Positions 43,275 through 47,263 of a DNA stretch of 64,000 nucleotides are shown here, piece after piece. Numbering within the stretch: the first letter of the stretch is position 1; each line of letters opens with the position of its first letter. Below the pieces are notes generated by a model, which saw only the letters and a list, made by a program, of their open reading frames with translations, had not been told where the DNA came from and did no database searches. The position numbers and the translations under genes were made by a program. The stretch comes from a virus. Location: positions 1-64,000 of IMG/VR virus record IMGVR_UViG_3300017763_004709, one strand, 5' to 3'.

Positions 43275-43953
43275 CTATGAAAAGTGTTTAGAAGCGTATA
43301 ACATAGATAGAGAGTCTGGAAGAGTATACAAAACTCCCGATGGCGAGTACCCTAGTATAACTACTATTTTAGGAGCGACTTCGAATAATTCTTTTTTACA
43401 TAAGTGGAGAGAAAGAGTAGGCGAAGAAGAAGCTAATAGAATATCTAAAGAAGCTACTGATAGAGGTACTGCAGTACACGACTATATAGAGCAGTACTAC
43501 TTACAAGAAGATAGAGTTTTTAGCGACTGGTTTGTATCTTCTGGACTTTCCAAAGAGCCAAGAAAAATTAAACAACCTGCTAGAGACATTATAAAAGAAT
43601 GTGATAGAAATAACTTTACTCCCTATGCTCAAGAAATACCTTTATGGCATCCCAAACTAAAATTTGCCGGAAGAGTAGATGGCATTGGGTTATGGAATGG
43701 TGTACTATCTATAATAGATTTTAAAACTTCAAAAAAGAAAAAATACACCTCTCAAATAAAAAACTACTATATACAAGCTACTGCATATGCTGTTGCCCAT
43801 AATTATTTATTTAATACTGCTATAAATAATTTTTCAATAGTTATTGGAGTAGACGAAAAAGAATCTCAATGTTTTACAGGTAAAGTAGTAAATTTTATAC
43901 CTGAGCTTAAATATAGGGTTAGATCTTTTTATAGTCAACAGAAAGGAAGTTAA
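43267..43953 (+). CDS. PD-(D/E)xK exonuclease
   Basis: YPSITTIL, RGTAVH, AGRVD...IIDFKT, QATAY. Confidence 0.88.
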   Translation: MFNYEKCLEAYNIDRESGRVYKTPDGEYPSITTILGATSNNSFLHKWRERVGEEEANRISKEATDRGTAVHDYIEQYYLQEDRVFSDWFVSSGLSKEPRKIKQPARDIIKECDRNNFTPYAQEIPLWHPKLKFAGRVDGIGLWNGVLSIIDFKTSKKKKYTSQIKNYYIQATAYAVAHNYLFNTAINNFSIVIGVDEKESQCFTGKVVNFIPELKYRVRSFYSQQKGS

Positions 43954-43954
43954 T

Positions 43955-44644
43955 ATTAAGAACTCTTTAAAACAACAAGAATACTATCGTCTAATAGAAA
44001 AATATGACTTACTATTTTTAACAGGCGCAGCGGGTACTGGAAAAACCTATGTAGCATGTAACTCAGCTTTAAATTTTTTAGAAAGAGGTCTTATTGAAAA
44101 AATTATTATAACAAGACCTGTTGTAGCTACAGAAGATATAGGTTTTTTACCTGGAACTTTAGAAGAAAAAATAAATCCTTTTATGGACCCTATACTAGGA
44201 GTATTATCAGAGATTTATAATCCTAAAGAAATAAAAAGGATGGTTGCTAATAATGTTATAGAGGCAGTTCCGTTAGCTTATATGAGAGGAAGAACTTTTT
44301 CTAACTCTTTTATAATACTTGATGAAGCTCAGAATACTACTCAAAAACAGATGAGTATGTTTTTAACTAGATTTGGCAGAAATATTAAGTGTTGCGTAAC
44401 AGGAGACTTACTACAATCAGATTTACCTACTAGAGAAAATGGATTAAACTGGGCGTCATCAAAACTAAGCCCCTCAGAGTTAGTAGCTTTTCTTACTTTT
44501 ACTAGTGATCACGTTGTAAGAAGTCCTTTAGTCAAAGAAATTATGAGATATTTATATGCAGAAGAAACGTCGTATCCCATTAAAAAAACTTTTAGAGCTG
44601 GAAGCCTTGAGTCTATTGCCCCGAGAGAGGTCGTTAATAGTTAG
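43955..44644 (+). CDS. phoH: PhoH-like ATPase; probable ATT start
   Basis: Walker A GAAGTGKT, ITRP and GFLPG lie in frame upstream of the first ATG; MRGRTF, DEAQN, GD..QSD. Confidence 0.9.
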   Translation: MKNSLKQQEYYRLIEKYDLLFLTGAAGTGKTYVACNSALNFLERGLIEKIIITRPVVATEDIGFLPGTLEEKINPFMDPILGVLSEIYNPKEIKRMVANNVIEAVPLAYMRGRTFSNSFIILDEAQNTTQKQMSMFLTRFGRNIKCCVTGDLLQSDLPTRENGLNWASSKLSPSELVAFLTFTSDHVVRSPLVKEIMRYLYAEETSYPIKKTFRAGSLESIAPREVVNS

Positions 44645-44915: not shown

Positions 44916-45050
44916 ATGCCCGTAAAAAAAGTAAAAGGCGGTTATAAGTGGGGAACCACTGGAAAAGTTTACAAAACTAAAAAAGCTGCAACTAAGCAAG
45001 CTAGAGCCGCTTATGCAAACGGTTATAAAGGTAAAAAAAGGAGAAAGTAA
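44916..45050 (+). CDS. Small basic protein (44 aa)
   Basis: AAGGAG RBS; MPVKKVKGGYKWG...KGKKRRK. Confidence 0.75.
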   Translation: MPVKKVKGGYKWGTTGKVYKTKKAATKQARAAYANGYKGKKRRK

Positions 45051-45051
45051 T

Positions 45052-45093
45052 ATGCCACATTACGGTAGAAAAGGTAAAGGAAGAAAGAAGTAA
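45052..45093 (+). CDS. 13-aa basic micropeptide MPHYGRKGKGRKK
   Basis: AGGAG RBS upstream; fills the gap. Confidence 0.55.
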   Translation: MPHYGRKGKGRKK

Positions 45094-45117
45094 TTATACT
45101 TATAAAGGAGATATAAT

Positions 45118-45270
45118 ATGCCTAAAATGAAAACAAAAGCCCCTAAATATACAGTAGGTAAAAAACCAGCTAAAAAGGCTGCAGCGAAAAAAGGACTTAC
45201 TGCTGCTCAAAAAAAACTGCCCCCAGCACTTCAAAAAGCTATACTTAAAAAAATGAAAGGCAAGAAGTAA
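45118..45270 (+). CDS. Histone H1-like K/A/P-rich protein (50 aa; not in ORF track)
   Basis: AAGGAG RBS; KKPAKKAAAKKG...LKKMKGKK. Confidence 0.7.
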   Translation: MPKMKTKAPKYTVGKKPAKKAAAKKGLTAAQKKLPPALQKAILKKMKGKK

Positions 45271-45273
45271 CTA

Positions 45274-45450
45274 ATGGCTGCAACACCTACCAATCCTAGT
45301 CTTTGGTCTAGAGCTAAGACTCAGGCAAAAAAGAAGTTTAACGTTTATCCTTCTGCATATGCTAATGCATGGGCAGCTAAATGGTATAAGTCTAAAGGCG
45401 GTAAATGGAAAGGTGCTCCTACCAATAAAGTGAGAAAAAAACGTGGCTAA
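45274..45450 (+). CDS. Small basic protein with YPSAYAN motif (58 aa; not in ORF track)
   Basis: MAATPTNPSLWSRAK...VYPSAYANAWAAKWYKSKGGKW. Confidence 0.75.
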   Translation: MAATPTNPSLWSRAKTQAKKKFNVYPSAYANAWAAKWYKSKGGKWKGAPTNKVRKKRG

Positions 45451-45670
45451 AGGCGGGTTAGGTAAATGGTTTTCTGAACAATGGGTTGATGTTAAAACAG
45501 GCAAACCTTGTGGAAGATCAGGCAAAAAAGATAAAAGAAAATATCCCGCCTGTAGACCTAAAGCAGTTGCTTCTAGAATAACTAAACAAGAAGCAGCTAA
45601 GAAAAAAGGCCGTAAAAAAGTTAAATGGTCTGTGACCTCTTCCGGTAAAAAGAGAAAGTCAAAAAAATAA
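45443..45670 (+). CDS. Small basic protein (WFxEQWVD...CGR...YPACRP; DUF5872-like)
   Basis: GTG start overlapping previous gene; motif recognition. Confidence 0.7.
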   Translation: MAKGGLGKWFSEQWVDVKTGKPCGRSGKKDKRKYPACRPKAVASRITKQEAAKKKGRKKVKWSVTSSGKKRKSKK

Positions 45671-45681
45671 GGAGAGTTTAT

Positions 45682-45849
45682 ATGATTAGTAAAATATTAT
45701 CTTGGACTAAATCAAAACTTAAAGAAAGAACTTCATGGGACGGAATAGCCTTAGTTGGAACTGGCGTAGTAATGATTATGATGCCTATAGATCTAGTAGC
45801 TTATGCAGCTATAGCATGGGGACTGTGGACTATTTGGAAAAGTGAATAG
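45682..45849 (+). CDS. Small membrane protein (55 aa; not in ORF track)
   Basis: AAGGAG RBS; KERTSWDG followed by hydrophobic hairpin. Confidence 0.65.
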   Translation: MISKILSWTKSKLKERTSWDGIALVGTGVVMIMMPIDLVAYAAIAWGLWTIWKSE

Positions 45850-45855
45850 TATACT

Positions 45856-46134
45856 ATGTTAGAAATTATACAACAGATGGCCTCAGATAGACTATGGATT
45901 TATACTGCTTTAGCAGGTAGTCTGTTTGGGGCTATATTTGTAGCCTATGTTAGCACTACTAAATTAGGTCTTTGGACATATGCTAAGATAGATAAAATGT
46001 TAGATCTACTAATAGATAGATTAGGATGGACTTGGTTAGAGCAACCAAAAGACGCTTGGAAGCAAAAGCTACCAAAAGGTCTTATCAAAAAAATAGACGA
46101 TATAGATAACAGATTAAAATACCTAGAAAAGTAA
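45856..46134 (+). CDS. Small membrane protein
   Basis: N-terminal TM helix. Confidence 0.6.
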   Translation: MLEIIQQMASDRLWIYTALAGSLFGAIFVAYVSTTKLGLWTYAKIDKMLDLLIDRLGWTWLEQPKDAWKQKLPKGLIKKIDDIDNRLKYLEK

Positions 46135-46183
46135 CTATTATTTTGGTATATATGTTAATATATGATAAAATAAGGAGATAATT

Positions 46184-46543
46184 ATGGCAAAAGCTAAAAA
46201 TGCTAGACGGTTACCTAGCGGCAAGTTAGAATACAGAGGAGAAACCTATCCTGGATTCAACAAGCCTAAAAGAAATACTTCATCCTCTAAGCATAAACAA
46301 GTTGTTTTAGCTAAAAAAGGAGAAGACATAAAAGTAGTTAGGTTTGGTCATAAAGATTATGGGCATAATTATTCTGAAGATGCAAGAAAAAATTATTTAC
46401 AAAGAAGCGCAGGAATAAGAGATAAATCAGGAAGACTAACTAAAGATGACAAGTTTTCTGCTAATTATTGGGCTAGAAAAGAGCTATGGGCAGGATCTGG
46501 AGGCTCTAAGAAGTCTCCTAAAAAAGGTGGACCTAGAAAATGA
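46184..46543 (+). CDS. Basic protein (KVVRFG...SANYWA family)
   Basis: AAGGAG RBS; K/R-rich. Confidence 0.7.
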   Translation: MAKAKNARRLPSGKLEYRGETYPGFNKPKRNTSSSKHKQVVLAKKGEDIKVVRFGHKDYGHNYSEDARKNYLQRSAGIRDKSGRLTKDDKFSANYWARKELWAGSGGSKKSPKKGGPRK

Positions 46544-46857
46544 TTATTAAAGATAGTGAAGGCCAAGAAGCCAGAATGATTAAAGCTAAAGTAAGAAAAA
46601 TGATAGCACAGAATCAAGAATTACTAAGTATGATAAAAGAAAATATGGACGTAGAAGAGTGGGTTCAGAATAAAATAGTTTTAGCGTCTCACAATATAGA
46701 TGCTATATATGATTATATGAAATACTCCTCTGACCCTGTAGAGACGCAACTAGAAGAAGACTCAGATAGTGTAACTATAACACTAGCATTAGAAGAAGAG
46801 ATAGACTCTTCTGATGTAATAGAAATATCTTTAACAGATAATTCTTTAGATGCCTAA
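46540..46857 (+). CDS. Protein with EEWVQNKI motif and acidic C-terminal tail
   Basis: ATGA-coupled; D/E-rich tail. Confidence 0.65.
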   Translation: MIIKDSEGQEARMIKAKVRKMIAQNQELLSMIKENMDVEEWVQNKIVLASHNIDAIYDYMKYSSDPVETQLEEDSDSVTITLALEEEIDSSDVIEISLTDNSLDA

Positions 46858-47263
46858 AGAGTATTTAATATCAGAGGCATTTAATAATGTTTTTTGTACC
46901 TTAGCACCTTCACCAATACATGGTGTAGGTGTTTTTGCGCTAAAAGACATACCCAAAAATATAATTGTATTTTCTTCTATATCATGGGATACCTTAGACA
47001 ACTCTATTCTAAAAAAGCTAGATGAAAGTGTACTACTTGAGTATGCTAAAAAATTTAAAACATCTTATGAAGGATTAAAGATCCCTGCTAGAGGGTATAA
47101 TTCAATTGACTTTAGATTTTACTTAAACCACGCTACTTCTTGTAATCTTAATTATGATTCAGAGAATGATTTAATCATAAGTAAAGATACTATTTATAAA
47201 AATACTGAATTAACAATAAACTATAAAGCTTACGGACTTAGCATTGATAACAGTTTTCACTAA
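46850..47263 (+). CDS. SET-domain lysine methyltransferase
   Basis: SPIHGVGVFA.KDIP, YLNHA, ELTINY. Confidence 0.88.
   Translation: MPKEYLISEAFNNVFCTLAPSPIHGVGVFALKDIPKNIIVFSSISWDTLDNSILKKLDESVLLEYAKKFKTSYEGLKIPARGYNSIDFRFYLNHATSCNLNYDSENDLIISKDTIYKNTELTINYKAYGLSIDNSFH

Follow-up and report, generated by a model that had tools for sequence, protein, structure and literature searches.

A row of small basic genes ending in a SET gene in a marine T4-like phage: possible stand-alone versions of phage head modules

The gene row and the constraint on its members

The window analysed here is a stretch of 64,000 nucleotides (nt) from a virus record (IMG/VR IMGVR_UViG_3300017763_004709, positions 1 to 64,000), and its subject is a row of short, very basic genes at 44916-47263 that ends in an acidic-tailed protein and a SET-domain gene. 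By appearance the source is a marine T4-like phage of the pelagimyophage kind; the guanine plus cytosine (G+C) content of the window is 32%, the phage's genes include a class Ia ribonucleotide reductase, PhoH, a PD-(D/E)XK nuclease and UvdE, and its relatives are uncultured marine viral contigs throughout. The row lies on the + strand with phoH on one side and uvdE on the other. It runs from a Cys-rich gene of 53 amino acids (aa) through b44, a 13-aa open reading frame (ORF) termed b13, b50, b58, b75, tm55, tm92, b119 and acid105 to SET, which is followed in order by a cytidylyltransferase-like gene, a PfkB-type kinase gene and a cupin gene (Table 1). A sequence-only reading of the window had proposed that the basic ORFs encode packaged or injected DNA-condensing peptides, served by an acidic chaperone and a methyl 'writer'. 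All the ORFs that it named are present on the + strand at the positions that it gave, and the coupling that it described from the last basic gene to the acidic-tailed protein and on to SET is seen as overlaps at both junctions.

Net charges of b44, b50, b58, b75 and b119 are +16, +18, +15, +23 and +21, with isoelectric points (pI) of 10.4-11.0 and no acidic residue in the first three; acid105 has a net charge of -15 and a pI of 4.1. Shine-Dalgarno sites of the AAGGAG type precede b44, b13, b50, tm55 and b119. There is no such site before b58 and b75, which are coupled to the preceding genes via overlap or close spacing.

Table 1. Features of the basic row, in window coordinates
Feature	Position	Strand	Description
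b44	44916-45050	+	44 aa; 13 Lys, 3 Arg, no Asp or Glu; pI 10.8; member of phrog_31267
b13	45052-45093	+	13-aa ORF with Shine-Dalgarno site; probably not a conserved gene
b50	45118-45270	+	50 aa; 18 Lys, no Asp or Glu
b58	45274-45450	+	58 aa; DUF5872 N-terminal half with YPSAYA motif; phrog_27331
b75	45443-45670	+	75 aa; GTG start; 8-nt overlap with b58 stop; DUF5872 C-terminal half and basic tail
tm55	45682-45849	+	small hydrophobic protein, grand average of hydropathy +0.55; kept in relatives
tm92	45856-46134	+	one N-terminal hydrophobic segment, helical C-terminus; kept in relatives
b119	46184-46543	+	119-aa basic protein; anchor of the cluster
acid105	46540-46857	+	105 aa; N-terminal helical module and Asp/Glu-rich tail; ATGA overlap with b119
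SET	46850-47263	+	137 aa; minimal SET-domain protein-lysine methyltransferase by prediction; 8-nt overlap with acid105

Every protein of the window was mapped onto a set of 86 related viral loci fetched with b119 as the probe. Measured against relatives at a synonymous divergence (dS) of 0.6-2, the ratio of nonsynonymous to synonymous substitution (dN/dS) is 0.07-0.25 for b44, 0.12-0.25 for b50, 0.03-0.06 for b58, 0.04-0.07 for b75 and 0.03-0.10 for b119. Because these values all fall within 0.03-0.25, the five ORFs are real genes under strong purifying selection. The sixth basic ORF in the earlier count, b13, did not hold up. It is restricted to contigs whose shared proteins in the region are at least 96% identical, and it lies within a 66-nt segment (45047-45113) that is missing from three related loci (L005, L008 and L019) and looks as though part of the b50 start region had been duplicated. 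In two marine RNA libraries, contigs skip this segment, joining 45046/7 straight to 45113/4. b13 is probably the by-product of an indel and not a conserved gene.

The view that the Lys-rich ORFs are no genes at all, being chance products of AT-rich DNA with its AAA codons, would suit the G+C content of the window and the unsupported b13. For the other five it is barely credible and was ruled out: in addition to the selection at dS 0.6-2 they have hundreds of homologues, they match Pfam and PHROG families, and b119 gives a confident structural model (predicted local distance difference test, pLDDT, 85). RNA libraries of four marine studies yielded contigs, at 90-100% identity, that cover b44 to tm55 as well as b119-acid105. 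This coverage is consistent with transcription in the sea; it is equally compatible with DNA carry-over and gives no timing. Positions 46978-47211, inside SET, have no RNA-library contig coverage in four runs, which is not evidence of silence.

b50 had drawn attention for a KKPAKKAAAKK tract likened to histone H1. Mapped at 36 loci, the protein is conserved in its C-terminal LTAAQKKLPxALQxAILKK stretch, and the motif recurs as the N-terminus of two fusion proteins (P0005 and P0009). The K/A-rich tract itself differs in L005 and L019, and a natural variant, seen in an RNA-library contig, has lost 15 nt in frame at 45167 within it. This H1-like tract is an unconserved low-complexity linker that varies among close relatives. 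Neither conserved K/A/P-rich repeats nor a histone or winged-helix domain, as would mark an H1- or protamine-like protein, was found in b50, and it has no Pfam match. A DNA-condensing 'chromatin' role is not supported by any test made here.

Some further features of the row and its surroundings may be recorded. Two hydrophobic proteins are kept inside the basic row (45682-46134), with tm55 and tm92 swapped in order in L012; in Roseobacter phage CRP-2 a gene with transmembrane and coiled-coil segments (gp72) precedes the b119 homologue, homology to tm55 or tm92 not being shown. The row is an insertion hot spot in relatives, where a class-3 lipase gene, a 139-aa gene and a gene of ~225 aa are found (L012 3330-4037 and 4860-5922; L005 3452-4132), and it holds extra basic families there: one of 70 aa (MPLKKGSSQKT..), one with ..GQWSARKAQ..GGGY and one of 83 aa (..RGRYLPKKAW..). 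No further copy of any module was found on the single 75.8-kb contig of the phage's own assembly. The PhoH frame (43942-44183) is open and homologous upstream of its first ATG, GTG or TTG, and its Walker A motif lies before 44183, so the gene start must be a non-canonical codon.

Shared modules and their virion context

Pfam DUF5872 (PF19197, cut-off 27.5 bits) is matched at positions 1-44 by b58 with 26.9 bits, slightly below the cut-off, and at positions 53-108 by b75 with 28.3 bits. Both halves are present here, as two overlapping genes in different frames and not as one polypeptide. The b75 module, for which 463 representatives were found, has the motif KWFxExWVDxKTGKxCGR...YPACRP. A single DUF5872 gene, broken by sequencing error or read by programmed frameshifting at the A7 run, is very unlikely as an explanation. 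It has in its favour that each ORF matches one half of a single Pfam model, that the overlap falls at the AGAAAAAAAC stretch and that a natural fused form exists (P0098, 132 aa). Yet the 169-nt spacing and the change of frame are constant across all relatives; in L019 and L093 the A-run is broken (AAATAAAA), with ATG in place of the GTG start and the TAA stop retained; and other phages, namely C72C1 (where the overlap is TAATG) and CRP-7, have separate halves whose relative frames differ from those here. The frameshift explanation was rejected on these three counts, which are also the reason why b58 and b75 are taken, from sequence comparison, as two coupled genes that make up a split DUF5872.

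Two observations concern these modules in other phages. In CRP-2 (L091, MK613344.1, 2288-2548) the annotated gp69 (2363-2548) is apparently in the wrong frame; the same DNA, in a different frame, encodes a homologue of b75 and the DUF5872 C-terminal half (..GGLGKWFGEEWTDVKTGKECGR..), which immediately follows gp70, the b58 homologue. In Synechococcus phage Sf-CH5 (L002, 2534-3139) a 201-aa acidic protein ends in the b58 (YPSAYA) module, and its gene comes right behind a cytidyltransferase-like one, a further case of modules beside a nucleotidyltransferase.

b119 matches phrog_220, annotated 'minor head protein and DNA pilot', at positions 517-609 (E 4e-17), and has homologues in 124 of 50,697 deposited phage records. 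An AlphaFold2 model built on an alignment of 32 sequences, with a predicted template modelling score of 0.76 beside the pLDDT given above, predicts two beta-hairpins and two helices. Against solved structures this model has no significant match (best Foldseek E 0.49; best VIA-align Z 2.9 among 48,161 chains). Among predicted structures it matches phage proteins, namely ICP1 ORF125, XkdF fusions and a ChaB fusion, as well as proteins of giant viruses and of a virophage, and a search of a protein atlas returned only 'viral, hypothetical'. The b119 domain may thus be described as a predicted fold confined to viruses. A second Pfam family, DUF5754 (PF19058, cut-off 27.4 bits), is not matched at E<=1 by b119 alone, which is about twice the length of the model; the b119-homologous stretches of P0060, P0171, P0211 and P0234 score 28-42 bits against it. 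The conserved positions of the b119 and DUF5872 modules are aromatic, Gly and basic residues only, and nothing among them looks catalytic.

The part of acid105 that is conserved is an N-terminal helical module (..ELLxMI..WxQxKI..YDYxKY, with W41 and K45), and its Asp/Glu-rich tail is variable. The idea of an acidic chaperone survives in part: translational coupling and natural fusions link acid105 to b119, but the conserved portion of the protein is its helical module rather than its acidic tail.

Sequence comparison supports the view that the basic modules belong together, as they are neighbours in several unrelated phages and fused in single polypeptides. CRP-2 has homologues of b119, b58 and b75 in this order upstream of terS and terL, phage C72C1 has the same three between terS and the portal gene, and in CRP-7 a b75 homologue stands within a row of basic genes adjoining terL. 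Fusions join b44 to b75 (P0085), b58 to b75 (P0098, above), b119 to b58 (P0034), and a b50-like motif to the acid module and b119 (P0005 and P0009). Three proteins of ~1000 aa each (P0171, P0211 and P0234) carry b75, b58, acid and b119 modules in one chain, and P0228 carries b75, b58 and acid. The statement in the sequence-only reading that several of the motifs occur as modules of long phage proteins is borne out by these natural fusions, the ~1000-aa chains included.

These long proteins are encoded on viral contigs of 90-127 kb within rows of giant ORFs, and the rows come directly after genes matching PHROG 'virion structural protein' families. Two such rows, on 97- and 115-kb viral contigs (L116 43-19313 and L123 3298-17867), consist of co-oriented giant ORFs of 1847, 1302, 1066, 786 aa and so on; one ORF strings DUF5872, acid and b119 modules together, two neighbours match PHROG 'virion structural protein' and the rest match no family. 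Gp125 of Vibrio phage ICP1, the putative capsid maturation protease of its capsid operon (PMC8096241), is an XkdF-type protease whose C-terminal third is a b119 domain (39% identity, E 7e-17), and gp012 of Aphanizomenon phage CL131 combines portal, b119, InPase and MuF domains. The C-terminal half of DUF5872 is fused to an ADP-ribosyltransferase (P0174) and to an SLT lytic transglycosylase (P0160), and b119 to NUDIX, InPase, PolyA_pol and P-loop kinase-like (AAA) domains. Architectures of this kind, termed polyvalent proteins and known from phages and conjugative elements, are predicted in passages of Iyer et al. 2017 (PMC5512222) to be packed in the head and injected. The basic proteins may likewise be packaged or injected, a reasonable inference given that proteins located within phage heads contain their modules: a capsid protease, a portal-MuF protein and proteins of virion gene blocks.

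The SET gene and its tie to the row

SET scores 28.3 bits against Pfam PF00856 (cut-off 22.4; E 2.5e-6; model positions 1-105). The GxG, NH and E..Y motifs that had been read as intact are so: GVGVFA (G25 and G27), N93-H94 and E120...Y125, with Tyr125 last, are invariant in 17 homologues. Its AlphaFold2 model (pLDDT 79) has 285 Foldseek matches in the PDB at E<=1e-3, and those listed are all SET or PR domains (MLL1/3/4, vSET 3kma, SETD8 and SET7/9); by sequence the best PDB match is KMT2D, with a weak E of 0.0095. By motifs, Pfam score and modelled fold this is a genuine minimal SET enzyme that looks active, its catalysis being predicted.

Genes of this type are rare in phages. There is no match to SET in the 50,697 deposited phage records and no PHROG family for it, and a word-based protein search gave 22 near-length homologues among 35 candidates scored. 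The literature searched does not mention a SET gene in pelagimyophages, and it mentions DUF5872 once, in passing. The closest longer relatives (P0250, P0302, P0330 and others) join SET to an FRG domain, for example in Acidobacteria, or to a multi-pass membrane domain. Several of these FRG-SET and membrane-SET fusions lie on megabase-size bacterial contigs, and none of them carries a basic module.

Within the SET-bearing clade there are 14 distinct contigs, and in each of them SET comes immediately after the acidic gene; this adjacency holds at SET identities of 37-45% and despite different C-terminal domains of the acidic protein. In 10 related contigs, b50, b119, the acidic gene and uvdE are kept and SET is absent. 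SET is present in exactly those loci that have the cytidylyltransferase, PfkB kinase and cupin genes (19 loci each). Because a single insertion or deletion explains it, this co-variation of SET with the sugar-nucleotide genes says little either way. SET also evolves faster than the basic genes, with a dN/dS of 0.22-0.76. The tie between SET and the basic genes, as judged from gene neighbourhoods, rests on adjacency in one clade and so on one evolutionary event.

More distant phage SET genes have none of the basic modules beside them (L099, L100, L103, L104 and L106). In four of these loci (L099, L100, L104 and L106) SET stands just after terL and is overlapped by an upstream gene for a basic, zinc-ribbon-like protein of 101 aa; in L103 it is near a class-I methyltransferase and a cytidylyltransferase. 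The gene order of this second lineage (L099 888-5550; likewise L100, L104 and L106) is terL, a basic HKHK..CxxC protein of ~100 aa, SET, an 80-aa CxxC protein, one of ~95 aa and one of ~600 aa; neither Pfam nor PHROGs confirmed the downstream 606-aa ORF as a portal. The proposed linkage of a methyl 'writer' to the basic genes is weakened by relatives in which basic genes occur without SET and distant SET genes without the modules.

SET may instead be independent of the row, either as an accessory gene in its own right or as a member of a cassette that also holds the cytidylyltransferase, PfkB kinase and cupin genes. It would then have been inserted between the acidic gene and uvdE, and would methylate a host protein or another phage protein. 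We regard this as close to an even prospect. Its presence and absence equal those of the three downstream genes; in contigs such as L022-25, L032-33 and L036-39, b119, the acidic gene and uvdE follow one another so closely that SET would not fit between them; the distant SET of L103 is again near a cytidylyltransferase and a class-I methyltransferase; no fusion of SET to any basic or acid module was found; and the deposited phage records hold 124 b119 homologues and no SET. Against independence, SET overlaps or abuts the b119-coupled acidic gene in every contig of the clade, down to 37% SET identity, a second lineage couples a SET to an upstream small basic protein next to terL, and the neighbouring basic proteins offer 85 lysines in 346 residues. 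That SET methylates the basic proteins is possible from their adjacency, and on the unlikely side; an unrelated accessory role is at least as likely.

Interpretation and comparison with known systems

Our tentative interpretation, held at somewhat less than even confidence, is that the cluster consists of stand-alone, or 'disassembled', versions of head-internal, DNA-associated modules that are carried elsewhere in polyvalent proteins. It sets out from constrained genes, from links between modules by neighbourhood and fusion, from modules within a capsid protease, a portal-MuF protein and virion-block proteins, and from the motifs and fold of SET. From there it is a matter of inference that the stand-alone proteins are packaged, bind DNA and leave the head along with it, as is whatever substrate SET may have. 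The basic proteins b44, b50, b58, b75 and b119 would be loaded into the procapsid, where their positive charge would keep them close to the packaged DNA, and would probably exit with it at infection. The acidic protein would be the binding partner of b119 during assembly. SET, to judge from its neighbourhood, may methylate the Lys-rich basic proteins or other virion proteins.

Several findings weigh against this interpretation, among them those on SET given above (the contigs that keep the basic genes without it, its exact co-occurrence with three downstream genes, its faster evolution, and longer relatives on bacterial contigs without any basic module). The neighbours of the cluster in the window are the PD-(D/E)XK nuclease, PhoH, sugar-nucleotide enzymes and UvdE, with no recognisable structural module. 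No virion proteomics for the stand-alone members was found in the literature. An N-terminal capsid-targeting sequence of the T4 type, ending in (L/I)xE, is absent: b44, b50 and b58 have no Glu, and the N-termini of b75 and b119 lack the motif. The window holds 29 copies of the T4 late-promoter motif TATAAATA, where 21 would be expected, and no copy stands just upstream of the basic genes; sigma-70 and terminator scans of the window gave results near background, so that the promoter scan is uninformative about the timing of expression. Polyvalent proteins have effector domains that do their work in the host cytoplasm, and solo copies of such domains could be expressed after infection and not packaged.

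This last point leads to the main alternative to packaging, in which the basic proteins are not packaged but made in the infected cell as small nucleic-acid-binding or host-takeover factors, the same modules being injected pre-made by other phages within polyvalent proteins. We consider it rather unlikely, while giving it serious weight. The cluster stands among auxiliary, non-structural genes (the PD-(D/E)XK nuclease, PhoH, UvdE and sugar-nucleotide enzymes), its proteins show no capsid-targeting motif, and fusion to NUDIX, PolyA_pol, InPase and ADP-ribosyltransferase domains is effector-like company; the domains of polyvalent proteins are thought, in passages of PMC5512222, to act in the host after injection. 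However, a prohead protease and a portal protein, whose work is done within the capsid, carry the b119 domain, the solo genes of CRP-2, CRP-7 and C72C1 stand beside terminase and portal genes, and the b119 and DUF5872 modules lack the conservation expected of a catalytic domain.

The interpretation as disassembled head modules can be extended further than we would readily follow. In this extended form, which we regard as quite improbable, a dedicated set of small basic capsid-internal proteins that coat or organise the packaged genome is common to several lineages of tailed phages and to some giant viruses; it is made up of the b119 fold, the DUF5872 halves, b44, b50 and the acidic partner with its WxQxK motif, and SET methylates the lysines of these proteins in one pelagimyophage clade. 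If true, a bacterial virus would possess a core of protein and DNA together with a covalent 'writer'. As a rule, a few ejection proteins aside, the DNA packaged by tailed phages is regarded as free of protein. Tiny basic head proteins, if widely shared, would change models of head contents and of early infection in abundant marine phages. The results provide a first context for DUF5872, for DUF5754 and for a fold predicted only in viruses, and they record a rare phage-borne SET enzyme in a host that has no histones. The link to the well-studied capsid protease of ICP1 makes the idea testable in a tractable system. The 'chromatin writer' reading is not yet earned.

The internal proteins IPI, IPII and IPIII of phage T4 are small basic head proteins that are packaged with the DNA and injected. 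The proteins described here are alike in being small and basic and in being encoded outside the main structural block of a T4-like phage, and their riding with the DNA is what we propose; they differ in having no sequence similarity to the T4 proteins. The closest known counterpart of SET is vSET (A612L) of Paramecium bursaria chlorella virus 1 (PDB 3kma), likewise a minimal viral SET protein of similar size with no pre- or post-SET domains. It aligns with the model at a template modelling score of 0.71 on the target (E 4e-6), whereas sequence identity is only 18% and the phage host has no histones. DUF5872 and DUF5754 are known in Pfam as uncharacterised virus families.

The polyvalent proteins of PMC5512222 share modules with the row through members that carry InPase, NUDIX, ADP-ribosyltransferase, SLT, MuF and portal domains, and solo versions of other domains are known in that class; the keyword-matched passages of the paper do not mention the modules of this cluster. 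They differ in that each polypeptide there holds two to fifteen domains, whereas here each module is its own ORF of 44-119 aa, and in that the cluster here does not adjoin portal or MuF genes. In ICP1 Gp125 the C-terminal ~95 residues are homologous to b119 also by structure (Foldseek E 1e-7). The ICP1 domain shares one chain with an XkdF-type serine protease encoded in the capsid operon, whereas b119 of the present phage stands free, with an acidic partner encoded after it.

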